A stretch of DNA of 30,940 nucleotides from Actinomycetota bacterium (GTDB taxonomy: Bacteria > Actinomycetota > UBA4738 > HRBIN12): the NCBI GenBank assembly GCA_035643355.1, contig DASQQQ010000019.1, positions 1 to 30,940 of the forward strand, in the 5' to 3' direction. A program made the position numbers and the translations under genes. The notes under the pieces are model-generated. The model had not been told where the DNA came from. It saw only the letters and a program-made list of their open reading frames with translations, and searched no databases. Below are positions 1-13,468 of this stretch, one piece after another. Position 1 is the first letter of the stretch, and each line of letters starts with the position of its first letter.

Positions 1-737
1 CGGCCGACTGCGCGTACCTCGTGGACAAGTTCTCCCGAGGCTTCGACCACCTGATCTACGTGTGGGGCGCCGACCACCACGGGGACGTGGTGCGCGTGAG
101 GGGGGCGGCGGAGGCGCTCGGGTTCGACCCCGACGCGGTCGAGATGATCCTGTACCAGTGGGTGGCCCTGTACCGGGGGGGCCGGACGGTGGGGATGAGC
201 AAGCGCGCCGGCACGCTGGTCACGCTCGACGAGCTGCTCGACGAGGTGGGGGCGGACGCCACCCGGTTCACGCTCCTGTCCCGGTCGAACGATGCGACGA
301 TCGACTTCGACATCGAGGCCGTGAAGCAGCGGTCGATGGAGAACCCCGTCTACTACGTGCAGTACGGGCATGCGCGGATCGCCAGCATCCTGCGGCACGC
401 GGCCCAACGCGGCCTGGACCTGCTCCCGGTGGAGGAGGCCGATCTGTCCCAGTTGAGGACCGAGAGCGAGCTGGACCTGCTCCGGGCCGTGGCCGAGATG
501 CCGGAGCAGGTGGCCCAGGCCGCCACCCTGCGGGCCCCGCACCGCCTGACCCACTACGCTCAGGCGCTGGCCGCGCAGTTCCATCGCTTCTACACGGAGT
601 GTCGGGTGGTGACCGAGGATCGGGCCTTGACCCAGGCCCGGCTGTGGCTCTGCACCGGCACCAAGCAGACCATCGCGAACGTCCTCGGGCTGCTCGGCGT
701 CTCGGCCCCCGAGTCCATGGAACGGACCGATGCGTGA
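1..737 (+). CDS. argS: Arginine--tRNA ligase, C-terminal part (5' truncated by window edge)
   Basis: The frame is open from the window start. It contains GADHHG, the KMSKS-like MSKRAG, ENPVYYVQYGHARIASI and a DALR-type anticodon-binding C-terminus. It lies upstream of lysA, as in actinobacterial argS-lysA operons. Confidence 0.96.
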   Translation, partial: ADCAYLVDKFSRGFDHLIYVWGADHHGDVVRVRGAAEALGFDPDAVEMILYQWVALYRGGRTVGMSKRAGTLVTLDELLDEVGADATRFTLLSRSNDATIDFDIEAVKQRSMENPVYYVQYGHARIASILRHAAQRGLDLLPVEEADLSQLRTESELDLLRAVAEMPEQVAQAATLRAPHRLTHYAQALAAQFHRFYTECRVVTEDRALTQARLWLCTGTKQTIANVLGLLGVSAPESMERTDA

Positions 738-2571
738 CGCGCTGGACCGGCCCTCGGCACCGGGCGATCCCTGGCCGTCGGCCGCGACCTTCGGGCCGGA
801 GGGGCTCCGGATCGCCGGCGCCCGGGCGCTCGAGCTGGCGGAGCGGTACGGCACCCCGCTCCTGGTCGTGGACGAGGAGCACCTGCGCGCCCGATGCCGG
901 GCCTTCGCGGAGCTGTTCCCGCATCCGCTCTACGCGGTCAAGGCGTTCACGTCGCGTGGGGCGATCCGGATCGCCGCTGAGGAAGGCCTCGACCTGCTGG
1001 CCGCCACCCGGGGTGAGCTCGAAGCGTGCCTGCGCGCCGGCGTCCCGGCGGAGCGAATCGTGCTGCACGGCAACAACAAGTCCGAGCGCGAGCTCCACCT
1101 GGCGGTCGACGAGGGGATCCGCCTGGTCAACGTCGACAACCGGGACGAGCTCCAGCGCCTGTCCGCGATCGCCGAGGCCGCCGGGGTGGAGCAGCCGATC
1201 CTGATCCGGGTCGTCCCCGAGATCGTGGCCGGCGGGCACGAGAAGATCCGCACCGGTCACCGCGGGTCGAAGTTCGGTCTCCCGCTGGAGGAGGTCCCGG
1301 ATGCCGTGTCCGAGGCGGTGGCCCTCCCCGGCGTGCGCCCGCTGGGCATCCACGCGCACGTCGGTTCTCAGGTCCTCGAGCCGGGTCCCTTCCTGGAGGC
1401 GGTGGACGTCCTGCTCGATCTCCTGGTGCGGGTGCGCGAGGTATCCGGGTGCGAGGCGGAGGTCCTCGACCTGGGTGGAGGATTCGGGGTGGCCTACACG
1501 GATGAGTCGCCACCATCGTTGGAGACGCTCGCTCCGGCGCTGCTCGGCCGGGTGCGGGAGGGCGCTCGGTCCCGGGGCCTGGCGGTCCCGCACGTCTTGG
1601 TCGAGCCGGGCCGAGCGGTGGTGGGCGGGGCCATGGTCACCCTGTACCGGGTGGGCGCCGTGAAGCGGGCCGGTGAGCGGCTCCTCGTGGCGGTGGACGG
1701 CGGGATGTCGGACAACATCCGCCCCATGCTGTATGGCGCTCGGTACACGGTGGCACCGGCCGGCACCGAACGCCCGGGCGGGCCGACGACGGTGGACGTG
1801 GTGGGCAAGCACTGCGAGTCCGGCGACCTGTTGGCTCGGGACGTGCGGCTCCCGTGGCCGCCGCAGCGGGACGACCTGTTGGCCTTCGCGGCCACCGGCG
1901 CGTACACGTACTCGATGGCCAGCAACTACAACCGGGTCGGCCGGCCCGCGGTGGTGGCCGTCCGGCGGGGTGAGGTCCGGCCGTGGCTGCGCCGGGAGGA
2001 CCCGGCCGACCTCGATCGGTTGGAGGTGGCCCTGGAGGACCGGCCGATGCCCGAGCCGCCGGCCGAGGTCGAGGTCCGCCCGGCCCGCCCCGCGGACACG
2101 GACTCGTTCCTGGATGCCTATCGGAGCGTGGCCGCGGAGCGTCGGTTCATCCAGACCGAGGTCGTCACCGGAACCCCCCGCCAGTACCGACGGACGTTCC
2201 GCCGCGCCTGGACCTCCGAGGAGGCCACCCTGATGGCGCTCGCGGCCGGCCGCGTCGTGGGGAGCCTGTCGATCCGGCGCGACCCGCAGGGCGCCACCCG
2301 CCACGTGGCGACCCTGGGCATGTTCGTCCTGGACGGATGGCGTGGCCGGGGCGTGGGCTCGGCGCTCATGGCCGAGGCGCTCCGGTGGGCGCGGGCGCAG
2401 GGGGTCCGACGCGTGGAGCTCACGGTCTATCCGCACAACCGGGCCGCCCTGGCCCTGTACCGGCGCTTCGGCTTCGTGGAGGAAGGTAGGCTCATCCGGC
2501 ACGCGAGGAAGTCGTACGGGTACGAGGACGAGATCCTGATGGCGGTGTGGCTGGGCTCGGAGGGGGCGTGA
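730..2571 (+). CDS. lysA: Diaminopimelate decarboxylase fused to a C-terminal GNAT N-acetyltransferase domain (GNAT from about 2047)
   Basis: LysA motifs: YAVKAF (PLP lysine), HAHVGSQ, EPGR, VVGKHCESGD, GAYTYSMASNYN. The frame continues for about 174 aa with GNAT motif A WRGRGVGSAL and ELTVYPHNRAALALYRRFGF. The start overlaps the argS stop. Confidence 0.93.
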   Translation: MRDALDRPSAPGDPWPSAATFGPEGLRIAGARALELAERYGTPLLVVDEEHLRARCRAFAELFPHPLYAVKAFTSRGAIRIAAEEGLDLLAATRGELEACLRAGVPAERIVLHGNNKSERELHLAVDEGIRLVNVDNRDELQRLSAIAEAAGVEQPILIRVVPEIVAGGHEKIRTGHRGSKFGLPLEEVPDAVSEAVALPGVRPLGIHAHVGSQVLEPGPFLEAVDVLLDLLVRVREVSGCEAEVLDLGGGFGVAYTDESPPSLETLAPALLGRVREGARSRGLAVPHVLVEPGRAVVGGAMVTLYRVGAVKRAGERLLVAVDGGMSDNIRPMLYGARYTVAPAGTERPGGPTTVDVVGKHCESGDLLARDVRLPWPPQRDDLLAFAATGAYTYSMASNYNRVGRPAVVAVRRGEVRPWLRREDPADLDRLEVALEDRPMPEPPAEVEVRPARPADTDSFLDAYRSVAAERRFIQTEVVTGTPRQYRRTFRRAWTSEEATLMALAAGRVVGSLSIRRDPQGATRHVATLGMFVLDGWRGRGVGSALMAEALRWARAQGVRRVELTVYPHNRAALALYRRFGFVEEGRLIRHARKSYGYEDEILMAVWLGSEGA

Positions 2572-3857
2572 TCGACCGGAGGCTGCGCGTGGGGGTGCTC
2601 GGTGCGGGCACCGTGGGGGCGGCGGTGATCCGTCTGCTCGAGCGACACCGCGGCGACATCACGCGGCGCGCGGGCTGCGAGCTGGAGGTGGCCTCGGTGG
2701 CCGTGCGCGACCCGGCCAAGGCTCGGGACGTCCCGCTCGACCCGCCCCGATCCACCACCGATCCGATGGAGGTGGTCGACGATCCGAGCATCGATATCGT
2801 CTGCGAGCTCATCGGGGGCACGGAGCCGGCCGGGTCGCTGATCCTGGCGGCGCTCGAGCGCGGCAAGCCGGTGGTCACCGCGAACAAGGAGCTGCTCGCC
2901 AACCGGGGCCGTGAGATCCTCGACGCTGCCGACGCCAAGGGGTTGGATCTGTTCTTCGAGGCCGCCGTGGGGGGAGGGATCCCTCTGATCCGGCCGCTCA
3001 AGGAGTCGCTCACCGGCGAGCGGCTGTCCCGGGTGATGGGCATCGTGAACGGCACCACGAACTTCATCCTGTCCCGGATGGCCGAGGAGGATCGACCGTT
3101 CGACGAGGTCCTGACCGAGGCCCAGCGCCTGGGGTACGCGGAGGCGGACCCCACGGCGGACGTGGAGGGCTTCGATGCCGCGGCGAAGTGCGCGATCTTG
3201 GCCTCCATCGCCTTCAACGCCCGGGTGGTGGCCGGAGACGTGTACCGGGAGGGGATCGCCCGGGTCACGAACGAGGACATCGGATACGCGCGACGATTGG
3301 GGTACGTCGTGAAGCTGCTCGCGATCGCGGAGTTCGACGGCGAGCGGATCGCCGCCCGCGTCCATCCGGCGATGATCCCTGCCTCGCATCCCCTGGCCGC
3401 CGTCCGGGACGCCTTCAACGCGGTGTTCGTGGAGGGGCCGAACGTCGGGGAGCTGATGTTCTACGGGCGCGGGGCCGGCGGGGAGCCCACGGCCACGGCC
3501 GTGGTGGGTGACCTGGTGGCGGCGGCCCGGAACCTCCAGAACGGCACGCGCGGGGTGGGGTGCACCTGCTTCTGGGAGCGGACGATCCGGCCCATGGAAG
3601 AGCTCGCGGACCAGTACTACATCCTGCTGCGGGTGCAGGACCGCCCGGGCGTGTTGGCCGAGATCTCCCGCGTGTTCGGCGACAACGACGTGTCGATCCG
3701 GAGCGTGTGGCAGGAGGGGGGCGGGGCCGACGCCAAGCTCGTCTTCGTCACGCACCGGGCACTCGAGGGGAACTTCCAGCACGCGGTCGCCGCCCTGGAC
3801 GACCTGCCCGCGGTGGAAGAGGTGCGCAGCGTGGTCCGGGTGGAGGCGGAGGAGTGA
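2568..3857 (+). CDS. hom: Homoserine dehydrogenase with C-terminal ACT domain
   Basis: Motifs GAGTVG (NAD binding), [37 protein letters not shown] and YGRGAGG. ACT motif [10 protein letters not shown]. The GTG start overlaps the lysA stop (GTGA). Confidence 0.96.
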
Positions 3858-4909
3858 GCGCTCGGCCCTGGCGAGGCGTGATCGAAGAGTACCGCGACCG
3901 GCTGCCCGTCTCGGACGCCACACCGCTGGTCAGCCTGGGGGAAGGCGGGACCCCGTTGGTCCGCTCGGACGCCCTCTCGTCCGAGACCGGGTGCGAGGTG
4001 TACCTGAAGTACGAGGGGGCCAACCCCACCGGTTCGTTCAAGGATCGGGGGATGACCCTGGCCATCTCCAAGGCCCTGGAGGAGGGTTCGAAGGCGGTGG
4101 TGTGCGCCTCGACGGGCAACACCAGCGCGTCGGCGGCCGCCTACGCGGCGAAGGCCGGCCTGACCAGCGCGGTGCTGGTGCCCAAGGGGAAGGTGGCGCT
4201 GGGGAAGATGGCGCAGACGCTGATCCACGGGGCTCGGGTCCTGGAGGTCGATGGGAACTTCGACGCATCGCTAGACCTGGCTCGGGACCTGTCCCGGCAC
4301 TACCCGGTCACGCTGGTGAACTCCGTGAACCCGTACCGGATCCAGGGCCAGAAGAGCTGCGCGTTCGAGATCTGCGACGCGCTGGGCGGAGCGCCCGACC
4401 TCCACTGCGTGCCGGTGGGCAACGCCGGGAACATCACCAGCCACTGGATGGGCTACCGCGAGTACCTGGCCGATGGGCTCGTGGCGGAGCCACCCCAGCT
4501 GTTCGGTTTCCAGGCCAAGGGCGCGGCCCCCATCGTCCGGGGCGAGCCGGTGCCCGATCCCTCCACCATCGCCACCGCGATCCGGATCGGGAACCCCGCC
4601 TCCTGGGAGCAGGCGGTGGCGGCGGCGCGTGAGTCGGAGGGCGCCATCGCGGCGGTCACGGATCGACAGATCCTGGCGGCGTACCGGCGGCTGGCGCGCG
4701 AGGGCCTGTTCGTGGAGCTCGCTTCGGCGGCGTCGGTGGCGGGCCTGCTACAGCGCTCCTCGGACCGCCAGCTGCCCCGCGGCGCGACGGTGGTGTGCGT
4801 GCTCACCGGTCACGGCCTGAAGGATCCCGAGTGGGCCATCACCGGGGCCGGCCACCCACCCACCGTGCCGGTCGATCCCGCCGCGGTGGCGGTCGAGCTG
4901 GGGTTGTAG
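3854..4909 (+). CDS. thrC: Threonine synthase
   Basis: Motifs [19 protein letters not shown] (PLP lysine), [17 protein letters not shown] and [12 protein letters not shown] overlap with hom. Confidence 0.96.
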
Positions 4910-4913
4910 CAGC

Positions 4914-5798
4914 GTGCGGCTGCGCGCGGTGGTCCCGGCCACCTCGGCCAACCTCGGTCCGGGGTTCGACTGCTTCGGGCTGGCCCTGGACCTCTGCAAC
5001 GAGGTGACGCTGGACACCGAGGCACGGCCCGGCGTGCGCTGGGACGGCGAGGGCGCCCAGGAGCTCCCCACCGACGGGACCGACGTGGTGAGCCGGGCCA
5101 TCGCGGCGGCCGTGGAGCGCCGACGCCGACACCACCCCGAGATCTCGGCGCCCCCCTTCGGGCTCTACGGCGTGAACCGGATCCCGCTGGAGCGGGGCCT
5201 GGGCTCCTCGTCCGCTGCCGCGGTAGCGGGCACGGCGCTGGCCGCCGCGCTCCTCGGTCCGGTCGGCTGGGAGGACCTTCCCACCACCTTCGCGTACGCC
5301 GCGGAGCTCGAGGGACACCCCGACAACGCTGCCCCCGCGGCGTTCGGTGGCCTGACGGTGATCGCGGACGGCGGCGTGCACCGGCTGGACGTGCATCGGG
5401 CGATCCGGCCGGTCGTGCTGGTCCCGCAAGACGTCCGGACCTCCACCACGCGGGCCAGGCGCGAACTGCCGGCCCGCGTTCTCCTGGCCGATGCGATCTA
5501 CAACGTCGCCCACGGCGCCCTGGCGGTGAGGGCCCTCACCTCCGGCGATCTCGATCTGCTGCTGGTGTCCCTGCGGGACCGCCTGCACGAGCGGATCCGC
5601 CTGTCCTCGGTTCCCGCGGTCGAGGAGACCCTCGACCGGCTCCGCCGCTCGCAGGTCCCCGCCTGCGTCTCGGGATCGGGTCCATCGCTGCTGGCGTTCG
5701 AAGGGGACGGTCGTCCTGTCCCGCATCCGGGCCCAGGGTGGCAGGTGCTGCCACTCGCCGTCCGAGCCACGGGGGCGGAGGTGATCCGCGAAGGCTAG
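4914..5798 (+). CDS. thrB: Homoserine kinase (GHMP family)
   Basis: Motifs VPATSANLGPGFD, PLERGLGSS, EGHPDN and SGSGPS. It follows thrC. Confidence 0.95.
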   Translation: MRLRAVVPATSANLGPGFDCFGLALDLCNEVTLDTEARPGVRWDGEGAQELPTDGTDVVSRAIAAAVERRRRHHPEISAPPFGLYGVNRIPLERGLGSSSAAAVAGTALAAALLGPVGWEDLPTTFAYAAELEGHPDNAAPAAFGGLTVIADGGVHRLDVHRAIRPVVLVPQDVRTSTTRARRELPARVLLADAIYNVAHGALAVRALTSGDLDLLLVSLRDRLHERIRLSSVPAVEETLDRLRRSQVPACVSGSGPSLLAFEGDGRPVPHPGPGWQVLPLAVRATGAEVIREG

Positions 5799-6703: not shown

Positions 6704-7876
6704 TCAGCCCACGCAGGCGCCGGTGGAGACGGCGCGGGTGGAACCGATCGTGTGGGCGAGGCCGGACGAGGCGGCCGTGGACGAGATCGCGTAGCCGATG
6801 TCACGGTCGGTGGTCGAGGCCGCGAACACGATGCCGGCCACGGTCCCGTCCGTGAGGACGAAGGGCCCCCCGGAGTCCCCCGGTTGCACGGTCGTCTGGA
6901 GCTCGTAGACGCTCCGCTCGACCACCTGCCGACCGTAGATGTCCCGGCCCACGGCATCGATCGACCGGCGAACCGCGGCTCCGCTGCCGGTCAGGCTGCC
7001 TCCGCCGGGATAGCCCAGCACCGCACCCCGCGCGCCCCGGACGGCCGGGCTCCCGCTGAGCGGGAGTGGCGGGCCCGGATCGTGCGCCACGTACAGGACG
7101 GCGAGGTCGACGCGCGGGTCGAACATCACGGTGGTGGCCGACTGGCTCGCGCCTCCCTGCGCCTGGACCCTGGGTGCCATCACGCCGGCCACGACGTGTG
7201 CGTTCGTCATCACGTAGTGATCGGCCACCACGAACCCGCTGCCGGACTGGATCTCGCCGCAGGCCTGCCCGACGATCCGGAGGGTGCTGCCCGAGGCGGC
7301 GGCGAAGACGCGCCGGGCCTGGGCCCTGGATGGCGGGTCCACCGAGCCGGCCGGCGCCGGGGGGAGCCCCAGGAACACGTCGGGGAAGCCGTACCGGTTG
7401 AAAAACCTCCGGATCTCGCCGAGCAGCGACGGCGGCCGGGGCAACGAGGCATCGAGGCCCCGGACCACCGCCGAGCCTCGGATCTGGGAGGCGACGGCGG
7501 GGAAGGGTCCGTTCACGAGGTTGAGCGCGACGAACCAGATCGCGAGCAGAGCCGCGCCCATCGAGACGAGCACCCCTCCCCCCGCATCCACCGGCCGCAA
7601 GCCGCTGCGCCTGGCGCGAGCCCGTACCCAGGAGCCGAGGGCCCACCCCAGCGCGTTCCCGATGCTGCCCAGGCCGAGCAGCACGACCACCGCGATCCCG
7701 GCCCGGATGGCGTCCCCTCGGGCCAGGGAGGCGAGCGGGGGACCCAGCAGGGCTCCGGCCAGCAGCCCTAGGGCCAGGCCGCCGAAGGACAGCACCTGCA
7801 GGAGAGCCCCTCGCCGATACCCCAGGTACGCGGCCAGGCCGATCAGCGCGATGAGGAGCACGTCCAGGGCATCCAT
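6704..7876 (-). CDS. marP: MarP-like membrane serine protease (CvpA-like TM N-terminus plus trypsin-like domain)
   Basis: The start is most likely the ATG of MDALDVLL at 7876, followed by four hydrophobic helices. Catalytic triad motifs TNAHVV, DLAVL and PGDSGGP. The Cys pair ACG / TGAC matches the position of the MarP disulfide. Confidence 0.85.
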   Translation of the reverse strand: MDALDVLLIALIGLAAYLGYRRGALLQVLSFGGLALGLLAGALLGPPLASLARGDAIRAGIAVVVLLGLGSIGNALGWALGSWVRARARRSGLRPVDAGGGVLVSMGAALLAIWFVALNLVNGPFPAVASQIRGSAVVRGLDASLPRPPSLLGEIRRFFNRYGFPDVFLGLPPAPAGSVDPPSRAQARRVFAAASGSTLRIVGQACGEIQSGSGFVVADHYVMTNAHVVAGVMAPRVQAQGGASQSATTVMFDPRVDLAVLYVAHDPGPPLPLSGSPAVRGARGAVLGYPGGGSLTGSGAAVRRSIDAVGRDIYGRQVVERSVYELQTTVQPGDSGGPFVLTDGTVAGIVFAASTTDRDIGYAISSTAASSGLAHTIGSTRAVSTGACVG

Positions 7877-7987: not shown

Positions 7988-7993
7988 TAGACT
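7988..7993 (+). promoter_or_regulatory. Putative -10 element (TAGACT) of a leaderless transcript starting at the GTG at 8000
   Basis: A TANNNT hexamer lies 6 nt before the start codon and there is no Shine-Dalgarno sequence. No -35 element is recognisable. Confidence 0.5.
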
Positions 7994-7999
7994 GGTCGC

Positions 8000-8791
8000 G
8001 TGGTCACGATCGCCCACATCTCCGATCCCCACGTGGGCTCCCCGTACTTCGTCCCCAACCTGATGAACCGCGTGATCGTCGAGCTGAACGAGCTCGCGCC
8101 CGACGTCGTGATCTGCAGCGGCGATCTGACCAACGAAGGGTATCGGCAGGAGTACAAGAACTGGGTGGCCTACGCCGAGCGGATCCGGGCCCCGCTCCAC
8201 ACCGTGCCCGGGAACCACGACGCCCGCAACGTCGGGTACCTGCACTTCGAGGAGCTGATCGGGCCCCGACATTGGTCGATCGATCTGCAGGGGGTCCGGG
8301 TGGTGGGAGCCGACTCCAGCGAGCCCGACCTGAACGAGGGTCAGGTGGGGCGTGAGCGCTACGGCTGGATCCGCGAGCAGTTCGCCGTTCCCGCGGACCT
8401 CAAGGTGTTCGTCCTGCACCACCACCTGCTGCCGGTCCCCGGGACCGGCCGGGAGCGGAGCACGGTGATGGACGCCGGCGACCTGCTCGAGGAACTGATC
8501 GGCGCGGGCGTGAACATCGTCCTGTCCGGGCACAAGCACGTCCCGTACGTGTGGCGTTTGGAGAACCTCTACATCGCCAACGCGGGGACCGTGGCCTCCC
8601 TGCGTCTCCGCGGGTACACGAAACCGTGCTACAACGTGCTCCGGTTCGAGGGGGACGACGTCAAGATCACCCGTCGGTTCCCCTTCGGGGGAGAGAGCAT
8701 CATCGCGCATTTCTCGCTGACCAGCGGTGAGCAGTTCTACCGGGAGTTCGAACCGCCGGTCCAGCAGACCGTTGCGCAGACGGGGGAGTAG
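8000..8791 (+). CDS. Calcineurin-like metallophosphoesterase (Icc/CpdA-like); candidate cDPG hydrolase
   Basis: All five motifs are present: HISDPH (DxH), SGDLT (GD), PGNHD, HHH and SGHKH (GHxH). The substrate is inferred only from gene context. Confidence 0.88.
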   Translation: MVTIAHISDPHVGSPYFVPNLMNRVIVELNELAPDVVICSGDLTNEGYRQEYKNWVAYAERIRAPLHTVPGNHDARNVGYLHFEELIGPRHWSIDLQGVRVVGADSSEPDLNEGQVGRERYGWIREQFAVPADLKVFVLHHHLLPVPGTGRERSTVMDAGDLLEELIGAGVNIVLSGHKHVPYVWRLENLYIANAGTVASLRLRGYTKPCYNVLRFEGDDVKITRRFPFGGESIIAHFSLTSGEQFYREFEPPVQQTVAQTGE

Positions 8792-8818
8792 CCGGAAGTC
8801 GTCTCGCCGGGGGGCATC

Positions 8819-10150
8819 GTGAGGGTTCTCGCGCTCGTCGACGGGGAGCACTATCCGCCGGTCACCCGCTGGGGGATCCGGCGGGCCGCCGAGCGGGGAC
8901 TGCGGGTCGAGCTCGCGTTGTTCCTGGGCGGGACCGAGAAGGTGCTGCCGGGCGCGCTCCCGGACCTCGGGGTGCCGGTGCTGCCGGCCGGCGCCGACGC
9001 CGCGGGGGCGCTGGCCTCGGCCCTCGGCCAGCACGCCGTGGAGGCCGTGCTGGACCTCTCCGACGAGCCGGTGGTGGGCTACCGGGAGCGCATGGAGCTC
9101 GCGGCCGCCTCGCTGGCCGCCGGGATCCCCTACCTGGGTTCGGATTTCCGGCTGGATCCTCCGATCCACGGTCCGCCTCTCAGCATCCCGACCGTCGCGG
9201 TGATCGGGACGGGCAAGCGGACCGGGAAGACGGCGCTGGGGGGGGAGGTCGCTCGGGTGGCCGCGCGGGAAGGGCTGAACCCGGTCCTGGTGGCGATGGG
9301 GCGGGGAGGACCGCCGGACCCGCAGGTGGCGCCGGCGGGGACCGTCGACCTCGACCACCTGCTGGAGCTGGTCCGTCGTGGGGAGCACGCCGCGTCCGAC
9401 TACCTGGAGGATGCCGTGACCTCCGGGGTGACCACGATCGGCGCCCGCCGAGCCGGAGGCGGGTTGGCCGGAGCCCCGTTCGCGTCGAACGTCCGGGAGG
9501 CGGCCGAGATGGCGGTGGAGCTCGGAGCAGGGGTCGCGGTCCTGGAGGGGAGCGGCTCGGCCATCCCGCCGATCCCGTGGGACGCGGGGGTGCTGGTGGT
9601 CCCGGCCTTCACGCCCCTCGAGTACGTCACCGGCTACCTGGGTCCCTATCGGCTGTTGCTATCGGACCTGGTTGTCCTTACAATGGCTCAGAGCTCACGA
9701 GCGGGGCTCGAGAACCTTCACGCTCTTCGATCCCACGTCCAGCGATCCCGTGGCGCACCACGGTTCGTGGTTACGGAGTTCGAGCCGGTGCCGCTGGGTG
9801 ACGTGGGGGGCATGGATGTGTTCTTCACCACCACGGCCCCCGAGCCGGTGGCCGCGAGGCAGGTCGAGGTGCTCGAGGCCGGTTACGGATGCCGGGTGGT
9901 GGGATGGAGCGCTCGTCTGGCCGATCGAGCCGGGCTCGCGCAGGACATGGACGAGGCGGAGGGATACCAGGTTCTCCTGACGGAGCTCAAGGCCGCGGCC
10001 GTCGACATCGCATGCGAACGGGCGTTGGCCTCGGGAGCCGGCGTGGTGTTCGTGGACAACCGTGCCGTCGCCGTGGAGGGAGAGTCCGATCTTCCCACCC
10101 TGCTCCGGGAGACGATCGAACTCGCGAGGAACCGCAGAGCAGCGAGATGA
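8819..10150 (+). CDS. cpgS: Cyclic 2,3-diphosphoglycerate synthetase
   Basis: Full-length run of cDPGS family motifs: VDGEHYPP, GGTEK, DLSDEPV, GTGKRTGKT (P-loop), AMGRGGP, HAASDYLEDA, RRAGGG, EGSGSAIPP, TTAP and LTELKAAAVD. Confidence 0.93.
   Translation: MRVLALVDGEHYPPVTRWGIRRAAERGLRVELALFLGGTEKVLPGALPDLGVPVLPAGADAAGALASALGQHAVEAVLDLSDEPVVGYRERMELAAASLAAGIPYLGSDFRLDPPIHGPPLSIPTVAVIGTGKRTGKTALGGEVARVAAREGLNPVLVAMGRGGPPDPQVAPAGTVDLDHLLELVRRGEHAASDYLEDAVTSGVTTIGARRAGGGLAGAPFASNVREAAEMAVELGAGVAVLEGSGSAIPPIPWDAGVLVVPAFTPLEYVTGYLGPYRLLLSDLVVLTMAQSSRAGLENLHALRSHVQRSRGAPRFVVTEFEPVPLGDVGGMDVFFTTTAPEPVAARQVEVLEAGYGCRVVGWSARLADRAGLAQDMDEAEGYQVLLTELKAAAVDIACERALASGAGVVFVDNRAVAVEGESDLPTLLRETIELARNRRAAR
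9656..9684 (+). promoter_or_regulatory. Intragenic sigma70/SigA-type promoter within cpgS (TTGCTA-N17-TACAAT)
   Basis: -35 TTGCTA at 9656-9661, 17-nt spacer, -10 TACAAT at 9679-9684. It is formed by the codons TTG CTA and CTT ACA, which are rare in this GC-rich coding context. Confidence 0.65.
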
Positions 10151-10157
10151 CCCCACG

Positions 10158-11108
10158 ATGACCAAGGATCTGAAGAGCCCGCACATCCTGATCAGCGACC
10201 GGGAGATGGGGCTGCCCTTCTCCAAGGGCCTGCTGGCATCACAGGTGATGGTGACGGGCCTGTCCCCCTACCGCGCCTACGAGGTCGCGGAGGCCGTGGA
10301 GGATCGGCTGCTCGACCTGTCGAGGCCTTCGGTCACCACCGAAGAGCTCGATGGGGTGGCGATCGAGGTGATCCAGGAGATCGCCGGCGAACGCTACGCG
10401 AAGAACTTCCTGCGGTGGAGGGAGGTCGACGCGCTGGACATCCCGCTGGTGCTGCTGATCGGCGGGACCACGGGGGTGGGCAAGTCCACCATCGCCACGC
10501 AGCTCGCCGCCCGCCTGGGGATCGTCCGCACCGTGGCCACGGACGCGGTGCGCGAGGTCATGCGGGCCATGTTCTCGCACGAGCTCATGCCCACGCTGTA
10601 CCGGTCCTCCTTCGAGGCGGGAGACGCCCTGCGCGAGCCCCCCACCCGCGACGCGGTGGTGGTGGGCTTCCGCGAGCAGGTGTCCGCGGTGGCGGTGGGG
10701 GTCGACGCGTTGGTGGAGCGGGCCGCCCTGGAGGGCATGAGCATGATCATCGAGGGGGCGCACCTCGTGCCGGGCTTCATGGACCTGGAGTCCAGGAACG
10801 AGCGCATCCTGGCGGTCCCCGTGGTGGTGACCGTGGAGGACGAGGAGGTGCATCGGAGCCACTTCATGGCCCGCTCCTCGGACCACCAGACGCGTCCGGC
10901 CACGCGATACCTGAGAGGCTTCGACAACATCCGGCGCGTCCAGCGCTACATCAAGAGCCAAGCCCTGTCCCACGGCGTGCCGGTGATCCCCAACTACAAC
11001 TTCGATCACACCCTGGCGGCGGTGATCGACCTGGTGATGGAGCGGGTAACGGAACGCGCGTCCGTGCTGGCTCCGACGGCGAACGGGACGAAAGGACGCG
11101 GTGCATGA
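10158..11108 (+). CDS. pgk2: 2-phosphoglycerate kinase (ATP-cone plus P-loop)
   Basis: N-terminal PFSKGLLA (ATP-cone-like), RWR, LIGGTTGVGKST, TDAVREVMR, ERAALEG and IEGAHLVPGF, all typical of archaeal-type 2PGK. Adjacent to cpgS. Confidence 0.92.
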   Translation: MTKDLKSPHILISDREMGLPFSKGLLASQVMVTGLSPYRAYEVAEAVEDRLLDLSRPSVTTEELDGVAIEVIQEIAGERYAKNFLRWREVDALDIPLVLLIGGTTGVGKSTIATQLAARLGIVRTVATDAVREVMRAMFSHELMPTLYRSSFEAGDALREPPTRDAVVVGFREQVSAVAVGVDALVERAALEGMSMIIEGAHLVPGFMDLESRNERILAVPVVVTVEDEEVHRSHFMARSSDHQTRPATRYLRGFDNIRRVQRYIKSQALSHGVPVIPNYNFDHTLAAVIDLVMERVTERASVLAPTANGTKGRGA

Positions 11109-11767
11109 GGCTCTTCCTGGATACGGCCAACCTCGAGGAGATCCGAGAGATCAACCGGTGGGGGGTGCTTTCCGGCGTGACCACCAACCCCACGCTGGTG
11201 GGCCGGGAGAACGAGGATCCCGGCCAGCTCTGGAAGCAGATCCTGGCCGAGGTCGACGGCGACGTGTCGCTCGAGACCACGGAGCCGGAAGCCACGCCGA
11301 TGTACGAGCAAGGCGTGCGGCTCGCCGGCATGGGCCCCAACGCGGTGGTCAAGGTCCCCATGACCCCGTCCGGCCTGGAGGCCGGCAAGCGGCTAGTGGC
11401 CGACGGGATCAAGATCAACGTGACCCTGGTCTTCTCGCCGGCGCAGGCCATCCTGGCGGCCGAGATCGGGGCCTACATCGCCTCCCCCTTCCTCGGTCGC
11501 ATCGACGACGCGGCATCGGACGGGATGCATGCACTGGCCCAGATCTGCGATATCTACGCCGTGCAGGGCTACGACACGCAGGTCCTGGCCGCCTCGCTCC
11601 GCCACCCGATGCACGTGGTCCAGGCCGCGGAGCTGGGAGCCGATATCGCCACCATGCCCTACGACGTGTTCACCAAGCTCGTGAAGCACCCGCTCACGGC
11701 TGCCGGGCTGCAGCGCTTCGACGAAGACTGGCAGACGCTCCAGCGGGGATTGAAGGGAGGAGCCTAG
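11105..11767 (+). CDS. tal: Transaldolase (TalC/FSA-like small family)
   Basis: Motifs DTAN, GVTTNPTL, VVKVP (Schiff-base lysine), NVTLVFS and ASLRH. Glu in SLE and Phe in TLVF indicate a transaldolase rather than an FSA. ATGA overlap with pgk2. Confidence 0.9.
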   Translation: MRLFLDTANLEEIREINRWGVLSGVTTNPTLVGRENEDPGQLWKQILAEVDGDVSLETTEPEATPMYEQGVRLAGMGPNAVVKVPMTPSGLEAGKRLVADGIKINVTLVFSPAQAILAAEIGAYIASPFLGRIDDAASDGMHALAQICDIYAVQGYDTQVLAASLRHPMHVVQAAELGADIATMPYDVFTKLVKHPLTAAGLQRFDEDWQTLQRGLKGGA

Positions 11768-11785
11768 TTGGCACCGGAGAGAACC

Positions 11786-13468
11786 ATGGACAGGGGCGAC
11801 CTTGAAGGCAAGGTCGCATCCGAGCTCCACACGATCGCCGATGGCCTCGGGATCGAGGGGCACCAGCGCCTGAAGAAGGCCGATCTGATCGAGCGGATCC
11901 TGGCGCACTCGGGGGGCGGCGGGAACGGAGCGCAGGCGGCCGCCGGCGCTGCCGCGGAGACGGCTCCCCCCGCCGAGACGTCGTCGCCGAACGGCGAGGT
12001 GGCGTCCGACCGGACCACGGTCCAGGAGTCCCCGTCCCAGACGTCGGAGGCGCCCCCCGGGGTCCGGGAGGAGCCGCGGGCCGAGGACCGGTCACCGCGC
12101 CCACGGATCGAGCGGGACACGCGGGAGGACGGCGGGGGCCGTCCCGAGCGCGAGGACCGCGGCGAACGTCCCAAGGGGCGAGAACCGCAGGGCGAACCGA
12201 GGAGGGATCGACCCGAGGGTCGCGGGGGCGAGGGCCGGCAGGACACCCGGGGCGGCGAGGGCGGACGTCGACGCCTGTCCCGCGAGGAGCGCCGCCGCCA
12301 GCGCGAGGAGCGCCGACAGCGGGAGATGGAGGCGCGCGAGGAAGAGATCGCCAATGCCCCCACGGCCACCGGGCTGCTGGACATCCTGCCCGAGGGTTAC
12401 GGGTTCCTGCGGACGTCGGGTTACCTGCCCGGCTCCGAGGACATCTACGTGTCGCTGTCGCAGGTACGGCGGTTCATGCTCCGCAAGGGCGACACCGTCA
12501 CCGGCAAGATCCGCCAGCCCAAGGACAACGAGAAGTACTTCGCTCTGCTGCAGATCGAGCACGTGAACGGGCTCGAGCCGGAAGAGGCCAAGCAGCGCGC
12601 GCATTTCGAGAAGCTGACGCCGCTGTTCCCGCACGATCGGTTCAGGCTGGAGACGGCGCCCGGCGACGTGACCGGTCGGATCATCGACATGGTGGCGCCC
12701 ATCGGGCAGGGGCAGCGCGGCATGGTGGTCTCGCCGCCCAAGGCGGGGAAGACCACGGTGCTGAAGAACATCGCGAACGGGATCATCGCCTCCAGCCCCG
12801 ACACCCACGTGATCGTGCTGCTCGTCGACGAGCGGCCCGAGGAGGTCACGGACTGGCAGCGCACGGTGGAAGCGGCGGAGGTCGTGTACTCCACCTTCGA
12901 CAAACCCGCCGATCAGCACATCCAGGTCACCGAGCTGGTGCTGGAGCGCGCCAAGCGCCTGGCCGAGACCGGCAAGAACGTGGCCATCCTGCTGGACTCG
13001 ATCACCCGTCTGGCCCGCGCGTACAACCTGGCGGCGCCGGCGTCGGGCAAGATCCTGTCCGGAGGCGTGGACTCCACCGCCCTGTACCCGCCGAAGCGGT
13101 TCTTCGGTGCGGCCCGGAACATCGAGGAGGGCGGCAGCCTCACCATCATCGCGAGCGCGCTGGTGGAGACCGGATCGCGGATGGACGAGGTGATCTTCGA
13201 GGAGTTCAAGGGCACCGGCAACATGGAGCTGCGGCTGGACCGGGCACTGGCCGAGAAGCGGATCTTCCCGGCCATCAACGTCGAGGCCTCGGGCACCCGC
13301 AAGGAGGAGCTGTTGATGCCCACCGAGGAGCTCGCGTTGGTGTGGCGGCTGCGCCGGGTGCTGCACGCGCTCGAGCCGGGTGCCGCGCTGGAGCTGTTGG
13401 TGGACAAGATCCGCGCCACGAAGTCCAACGAGCAGTTCCTGAAGGAGATCGCCAAGGCGCCGTCGTGA
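11786..13468 (+). CDS. rho: Transcription termination factor Rho with long charged low-complexity N-terminal insertion (alternative TTG start at 11768)
   Basis: Rho_N motif LKKADLI, RNA-binding [15 protein letters not shown]-loop [30 protein letters not shown] and [12 protein letters not shown]. Confidence 0.97.

Follow-up and report, generated by a model that had tools for sequence, protein, structure and literature searches.

The stretch of DNA analyzed here, referred to below as the window, comprises 30,940 nucleotides (nt) of an Actinomycetota bacterium (contig DASQQQ010000019.1) and carries, at positions 8000 to 8791 of its forward strand, a gene for a metallophosphoesterase (MPE) of 263 amino acids. 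This gene is the first of an operon that continues with cpgS, encoding a homologue of cyclic 2,3-diphosphoglycerate (cDPG) synthetase (cDPGS), and with the gene of a 2-phosphoglycerate kinase (2PGK) homologue. The gene itself, its intact motifs, its fold class, its position in the operon, and its co-occurrence with the pathway genes in two domains of life are direct observations, and it is very likely that MPE is functionally tied to the 2PGK/cDPGS pathway. With moderate confidence, we further propose that MPE is a hydrolase of cDPG and/or 2,3-diphosphoglycerate (2,3-DPG), a role whose substrate, flux direction, and regulation we infer.

The neighborhood of cpgS provides a first line of evidence. 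In a set of 80 related loci found with cpgS (62 to 79% identity), MPE lies directly upstream of cpgS in every one of the 78 loci that possess upstream DNA, and its identity among these loci (68 to 91%) exceeds that of cpgS as well as that of 2PGK. The shared gene order extends downstream, with a gene for a fructose-6-phosphate aldolase/small transaldolase (FSA) in 79 and rho next in 75 of the 80 loci. Since these genes are syntenic as well, the 78/78 adjacency alone could be a matter of inheritance, and MPE might then be an unrelated housekeeping phosphoesterase that owes its place beside cpgS to inherited synteny without functional meaning. Such an explanation seems very unlikely to us: at one locus (L140) MPE stays with cpgS although 2PGK and FSA were not found beside them, the genes are jointly absent across families, and archaea hold the same partners in different gene orders. 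The adjacency of MPE and cpgS is also kept where cpgS retains only 41 to 50% identity.

Presence and absence follow the same pattern in an even sample of 401 Actinomycetota genomes. Counting MPE at E ≤ 1e-20, we found cpgS in 230 and MPE in 227 of these genomes, and a comparison of the two lists by hand yielded 225 genomes with both genes and 169 without either; 5 genomes have only cpgS, and 2 have only MPE. This tally includes five unpublished genomes (G001, G048, G088, G120, and G318), all of which fall into the class with both genes and on none of which we base a claim of its own. Whole families of Actinomycetota lack both genes, the same families being positive or negative in both searches. 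Among the seven exceptions, G195, G281, and G315 have clusters cut by contig ends, G391 holds a fragment, and G177 has only a weak cpgS match; the other two, G019 and G117, are weighed below. At the G019 locus (L145; G019:C10:19000-28000), a peptidase S49 gene overlaps the start of cpgS, and just upstream are genes for an archaeal-type cofactor-independent phosphoglycerate mutase and a mannosylglycerate-hydrolase-like glycosidase. An MPE-cpgS pair was also seen on a contig binned as Chloroflexota (L114; JBKPCZ010000184.1), with 59% identity to the window MPE, a case in which misbinning is possible. Several long metagenomic proteins (P0133, P0150, P0161, P0170, and P0215) span MPE and cpgS segments but are patchy or truncated; we took these joined proteins to be gene-calling read-through and do not count them as proof of an MPE-cpgS fusion.

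A search of 1.84 billion representatives led to archaeal relatives in which the same partners are arranged differently. It returned 198 proteins at E ≤ 1e-30, a large class of which are proteins of about 500 amino acids with two MPE domains; for one such tandem MPE (P0131), the order 2PGK, CBS protein, tandem MPE was seen in low-GC archaeal metagenome-assembled genomes (MAGs). Across the 133 genomes of the Thermococcus-type phylum, cpgS was found in 97, MPE in 110, and 2PGK in 106. Most cpgS-bearing genomes place the tandem MPE 1 to 3 kb from cpgS-2PGK, in convergent, divergent, or codirectional orientation, and a few place it 10 to 40 kb away or elsewhere. An MPE match was obtained in each of the 106 genomes that carry 2PGK (only a weak one, at 8e-13, in G427), and the genomes listed without MPE in both searches also lack 2PGK and cpgS; the link of MPE to 2PGK is at least as tight as its link to cpgS. 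As separate observations, an Undinarchaeota MAG (L110; CAZWFW010000026.1) has a cpgS-2PGK pair and no MPE found in that genome at E ≤ 1e-8, and a second solved cDPG synthetase (PDB 9SXB; 436 amino acids) resembles the Thermococcus-type cpgS (L103) at its N terminus, so that the Thermococcus-type enzyme appears to have been studied structurally.

The tandem MPE is always preceded by the gene of a CBS-pair protein (139 to 149 amino acids; Pfam match at 1e-29), with an overlap of 4 nt, as in the pairs at L131:2865-4825, L133:2853-4801, L134:5932-7859, L135:2577-4528, and L084:5274-7157. According to our alignment, all single-domain MPEs and all N-terminal domains of tandem proteins retain the full catalytic set. 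Of the seven C-terminal domains examined, six have lost the motif I histidine, and all have lost GNH and GHxH. These C-terminal domains form one clade in the tree, with a branching that mirrors that of the N-terminal domains, which argues for an old duplication. The residues retained and lost make a pseudo-dimer with a single active site, rather than two enzymes, the best reading of the tandem MPE, and the CBS-pair protein is a probable nucleotide-sensing subunit of this pseudo-dimeric enzyme.

A second archaeal set comprises 221 Methanobacteria-type genomes, entered via a Methanobrevibacter MAG and representing the class of known cDPG producers. Here, cpgS was found in 204, single-domain MPE orthologues in 202 (43 to 48% identity; E values of about 1e-60 to 1e-68), and 2PGK in 217 genomes, and an MPE orthologue is present in a record titled Methanothermobacter sp. 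(L156). It is with these single-domain forms that the window MPE clusters in the tree. The orthologues stand among housekeeping genes (NAC, a tRNA-guanine transglycosylase-like gene, and an NYN RNase), as the explanation by inherited synteny would have it. Joint absence is seen here too, since nine genomes lack both cpgS and MPE. Most genomes of this set have two 2PGK paralogues; seven of the nine have just one, which is the best-scoring type against the window 2PGK, and no 2PGK was found in the other two (G628 and G656). In Methanobacteriaceae and Methanothermobacter, one MPE paralogue of about 262 amino acids has a conserved same-strand gene downstream that encodes a protein of about 200 amino acids. 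This gene is present in 58 of the 60 loci with room for it and lies within 400 nt in 49 (L153:1282-2843, G549; L156-L216). Its product has four to five hydrophobic segments and matches no Pfam family. There may be a connection between this MPE paralogue, with its membrane-protein neighbor, and the membrane-bound cDPG hydrolase reported for Methanothermobacter thermautotrophicus.

The original prediction had named co-occurrence and a shared neighborhood with cpgS in bacteria and archaea as a check of its proposal. This check was clearly passed, by the 78/78 adjacency, the 401-genome tally, and the Thermococcus-type loci, and the tie to the cDPG pathway is thus well supported. It is the combination of partners conserved in two domains of life, differing gene orders, and joint absences that makes a functional connection so probable.

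The MPE protein matches the Pfam family Metallophos (PF00149) over residues 3 to 182 (68.6 bits against a cutoff of 21.5; E = 1.3e-18) and has a complete set of metal-ligand motifs, namely D9-x-H11, G41-D42, G71-N72-H73-D74, H140-H142, and G177-H178-x-H180. These ligands are invariant in an alignment of 20 active-type domains from bacteria and archaea. Since the catalytic aspartate is residue 9, there is no room for a signal peptide, and no transmembrane segment was found in the 29.6-kDa protein, whose highest 19-residue Kyte-Doolittle mean is 1.12. Profile match, motifs, and hydropathy all agree with the earlier description of a cytoplasmic calcineurin-like phosphoesterase of the GNHD form without a signal peptide, and we read MPE as a soluble enzyme with two metal ions, of the Mn or Fe type, in its active site. 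An AlphaFold2 model of MPE (pLDDT 92.6, pTM 0.90) was used for a structure search, in which the top 50 listed of more than 400 significant PDB matches have the metallophosphoesterase fold; the nearest solved folds are GpdQ and Rv0805, with template modeling (TM) scores of about 0.7 and 20 to 23% identity. A homodimer prediction scored 0.36 against a mark of 0.42 and was not used as evidence either way.

Beyond the metal ligands, the basic residues R76, R151, R153, K179, R202, and R204 are invariant or nearly so in the 20 active-type domains, which suggests, as far as an alignment can, a pocket for a small, highly anionic substrate. The family also conserves D105/S106, P109/D110, the loop T-G-R151-E-R153-N, and N212, and most of the conserved nonligand positions adjoin the ligand motifs in sequence. 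Close homologues match with E values down to 1e-167, and the source genome holds no other MPE matching closer than E = 1e-5, which delimits the family sharply. The MPE family forms a clearly bounded subfamily within a known superfamily; its link to the pathway is well supported, and its substrate is a proposal.

In the role that we propose, MPE would be the hydrolytic, phosphate-releasing arm of the pathway leading from 2-phosphoglycerate via 2,3-DPG to cDPG. Its reactions would be the opening of the pyrophosphate ring of cDPG to 2,3-DPG, the removal of a phosphate from 2,3-DPG to yield phosphoglycerate and inorganic phosphate (Pi), or both. cDPG is a pyrophosphate diester, and LpxH/LpxG, ApaH, and ADPRibase-Mn, enzymes of the same superfamily fold, cleave bonds of this type, that is, P-O-P bonds between two esters. 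Given this bond type, and given that the nearest relatives of MPE are diesterases, the opening of cDPG is chemically favored. Several enzymes of the metallophosphoesterase fold, such as GpdQ, also act on monoesters.

A number of observations weigh against this proposal, or against parts of it. Genome G019 (95% complete and well assembled) carries cpgS-2PGK-FSA with the peptidase S49 gene replacing MPE, and G117 (98% complete) carries MPE alone. Since the genomes are related to one another, fewer independent events underlie the co-occurrence than its counts suggest. Within the Methanobacteria-type genomes, MPE is not linked to cpgS, and 10 genomes have cpgS without MPE while 8 have MPE without cpgS. 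The enzymatic role of all family members is read from sequence and context. Of the two cDPG hydrolase activities reported for M. thermautotrophicus, one is membrane-bound and inhibited by K+ and Pi, as far as the summary in PMC1224877 goes, whereas the window MPE is soluble and has no hydrophobic segment. Finally, a role confined to cDPG is contradicted by 12 archaeal genomes of the Thermococcus-type phylum, in two groups (G401-G403 and G405-G407; G426-G431), which have MPE and 2PGK, in the order 2PGK-CBS-MPE in the loci examined, and in which cpgS was not found, in nine of them also not with a Thermococcus-type query. Two of these 12 genomes also keep a single-domain MPE copy. A weak match that we considered as a stand-in for cpgS turned out to be a distant P-loop paralogue of about 450 amino acids (with a weak CobW/HypB/UreG match), whose similarity to cpgS is local, around the Walker B region (L149:2377-3726, G406; L152:2228-3631, G426). 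It is present in 99 of 101 Thermococcus-type genomes regardless of their cpgS, 2PGK, or MPE status and is thus no specific stand-in.

Because the 2PGK-CBS-MPE module is kept in these genomes, a cDPG-only role is excluded for the family as a whole. Where 2PGK is present and cpgS missing, MPE persists in tight linkage, which makes 2,3-DPG (or the two compounds together) the more parsimonious shared substrate. The original prediction had offered two options, the opening of cDPG to 2,3-DPG or the dephosphorylation of 2,3-DPG, and the phyletic pattern favors the second of these or a dual activity. A dual or sequential activity is the single most likely form of our proposal; activity on 2,3-DPG would then be family-wide, and ring opening of cDPG would be added where cpgS is present.

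A further difficulty is that a synthase and a hydrolase of one compound in one operon would create a futile cycle unless they are regulated. This problem would be avoided if MPE were a helper of the pathway that leaves the end products intact. It might perform metabolite repair, clearing a by-product of 2PGK or cDPGS that is inhibitory or wrongly phosphorylated, or it might act as a regulatory phosphatase or partner of these enzymes. We consider a helper role unlikely, since no candidate by-product is known and since the GpdQ/Rv0805-like fold class consists of small-molecule esterases, not protein phosphatases, even though such a role would account just as well for the place of MPE in the operon and for the co-occurrence, and would fit the stronger conservation of MPE relative to cpgS. 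If MPE is the hydrolase that we propose, a futile cycle with the cotranscribed kinase and synthetase would have to be prevented after translation. For the Thermococcus-type archaea, the translationally coupled CBS-domain protein would be the obvious candidate regulator and would point to adenine-nucleotide control; no regulator is visible for the bacterial operon.

All genes of the bacterial operon lie on the forward strand and are closely spaced. MPE starts with GTG and ends with a stop codon at 8789 to 8791, and the distance from this stop codon to the GTG start of cpgS is exactly 27 nt, as had been noted before. Within this spacer, 4 nt before the cpgS start, our reading of the sequence places a G-rich, Shine-Dalgarno-like run (8809 to 8814) that may serve in ribosome binding. 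cpgS (8819 to 10150) encodes 443 amino acids, and its product matches the cDPGS of Methanothermus fervidus (PDB 8ORU/8ORK) over residues 2 to 436 at 8.1e-89, with the P-loop GTGKRTGKT aligned. The 2PGK gene (10158 to 11108; 316 amino acids) starts 7 nt past the cpgS stop; its product matches the NCBIfam model NF003259 at 2.1e-89, with 299.9 bits falling under the curated cutoff of 343. FSA (11105 to 11767; TIGR00875, 7.4e-72; Pfam TAL_FSA, 2.7e-52) overlaps the 2PGK stop in an ATGA at 11105 to 11108, and rho (11768 to 13468; TIGR00767, 1.1e-186) follows directly and is possibly cotranscribed with the operon. The cpgS-pgk2 operon of the original prediction therefore stands as to its genes, with two amendments: the start of 2PGK was set to the in-frame ATG at 10158, and the operon continues into FSA.

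A −10-like promoter hexamer, TAGACT, was read at 7988 to 7993, 6 nt before the GTG start of MPE. Among 75 related loci, TAGACT or TACACT stands at the equivalent place in 64 under a strict distance window, and in the remainder it lies a few bases farther off. The DNA flanking the hexamer is variable among these loci, which argues that the hexamer itself is not there by chance. A generic sigma-70 scan of the window did not list this box, and we saw no Shine-Dalgarno sequence ahead of the MPE start. Together, the conserved −10 box and the absence of a Shine-Dalgarno sequence before the GTG make it a fair inference that the operon transcript is leaderless or nearly so, in line with the leaderless-type TAGACT promoter proposed earlier. 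MPE would be transcribed first from this promoter, together with cpgS, 2PGK, and the small aldolase.

The host is an uncultured, high-GC soil bacterium represented by a MAG, and not a methanogen. Its genome (2.67 Mb in 388 contigs; 83% complete) is fragmented, the window being its contig C19. The closest public relatives are MAGs named “Actinomycetota bacterium” from soil and sediment, and the only public sequencing runs that contain the stretch are two soil metagenome DNA runs of one study, no RNA run being listed. Upstream of the operon, a divergent gene (6704 to 7876, reverse strand) encodes a membrane protease in which a CvpA (colicin V production) membrane domain is joined to a trypsin-like protease, an architecture known from mycobacterial MarP. 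Farther upstream, lysA-like, hom, thrC, and GHMP kinase (thrB-like) genes occupy positions 730 to 5798 of the forward strand; the lysA-like open reading frame also includes a GNAT acetyltransferase portion and could represent two genes. With these genes upstream and rho downstream, the cDPG module is embedded in a run of housekeeping genes, from the threonine genes to rho, that is presumably conserved in actinobacteria.

If our proposal is correct, MPE completes the 2,3-DPG/cDPG pathway and would help to explain how cells use a phosphate-rich cDPG pool as a store of phosphate, carbon, and energy. It would also matter for the biotechnological production of cDPG, in which yields would suffer from a hydrolase of the host; the enzymatic synthesis of the compound has been published (PMC12136491). 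Ordinary soil bacteria widely carry the cDPG genes, yet in current papers the compound is regarded as archaea-only, and one describes it as exclusive to hyperthermophilic methanogens (PMC10690619). New in this analysis are the 2PGK-CBS-MPE modules in which cpgS was not found, the dead second domain of the tandem MPE, the census of Methanobacteria-type genomes, the conserved −10 box, and the resolution of exceptions in the bacterial sample. It is tempting to speculate further, although we hold the complete picture only tentatively and think it less likely than not, that the MPE family is the missing catabolic arm of a 2,3-DPG/cDPG buffer of phosphate and energy. Far from being peculiar to hyperthermophilic methanogens, this buffer would be common in mesophilic soil Actinomycetota, most Methanobacteria-type genomes, and Thermococcales. 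The ancestral substrate would then be 2,3-DPG, the archaeal tandem a one-site pseudo-dimer gated by a CBS adenylate sensor, and the membrane-bound hydrolase of Methanothermobacter the paralogue that is paired with a small membrane protein.

Among known proteins, the glycerophosphodiesterase GpdQ from Enterobacter aerogenes (PDB 2ZO9, 3D03, and 2DXL) is the best structural match to MPE (Foldseek E = 4.5e-17; TM score, 0.72) and has the two-metal metallophosphoesterase core and motif set in common with it. This likeness raises the possibility that the substrate of MPE is a different phosphate ester of glycerol or glycerate, for example a glycerophosphodiester, and that the link of MPE to the pathway reflects shared carbon or phosphate metabolism and not a substrate in common; the presence in the operon of an aldolase/transaldolase of central sugar-phosphate metabolism would fit as well. 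Even so, we find such a substrate distinctly improbable, given that GpdQ and MPE are only 20 to 21% identical (sequence match at 1e-9) and that, in three phyla, MPE is gained and lost along with 2PGK and cpgS. The gene contexts of GpdQ and MPE are entirely different. Set against GpdQ, the MPE family has specific conserved loops (GNHDARNVGY, TGRERN, and RLRG), and the conservation of TGRERN and RLRG was read from an alignment confined to the MPE family.

Together with GpdQ, Rv0805 (CpdA/Icc) gives the best sequence matches among solved structures, ranking first at 1.1e-12 (TM score, 0.67, or 0.76 when target-normalized), and it has the GNHD-type motif in common with MPE. Close homologues of MPE are labeled “CpdA” or “Icc protein” in JGI records, which would make MPE a class III cyclic-nucleotide phosphodiesterase. 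This is the least probable of the alternatives that we weighed. The identity to Rv0805 is 21 to 23%, MPE reaches 37.7 bits against the CpdA equivalog NF008359 (cutoff, 225) and 38.8 bits against SpdA NF050112 (cutoff, 400), and the linkage to 2PGK and cpgS in both domains of life would be left unexplained; since both models are failed by a wide margin, the labels appear to be over-annotation. LpxG gives a weak, partial match (24.3 bits against a cutoff of 350), and MPE falls outside the LpxH/LpxG, ApaH, and ADPRibase-Mn families. PdeM (PMC4320098) was considered as a characterized relative and set aside, as it belongs to a different, ligase-associated subclass.

In terms of function, the counterparts of the proposed enzyme are the cDPG hydrolase activities (cDPG to 2,3-DPG) of M. 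thermautotrophicus (Sastry et al. 1992; van Alebeek et al. 1994), which are known, to the extent that PMC1224877 summarizes them, as activities without a sequence. Our full-text literature searches yielded no gene assigned to these activities and no paper connecting 2PGK or cDPG with a metallophosphoesterase, matching the earlier statement that cDPG-hydrolyzing activity has been described in methanogens and is not known to have an assigned gene. For a breakdown of cDPG that was measured in the early 1990s, the MPE family thus offers a concrete candidate gene. On the biosynthetic side, the window cpgS and 2PGK are clear homologues of the enzymes of cDPG biosynthesis in M. fervidus (2PGK and cDPGS; PDB 8ORK/8ORU; PMC10690619). 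The published M. fervidus pathway has no third component, whereas the operon described here includes MPE and sits in a soil actinobacterium.

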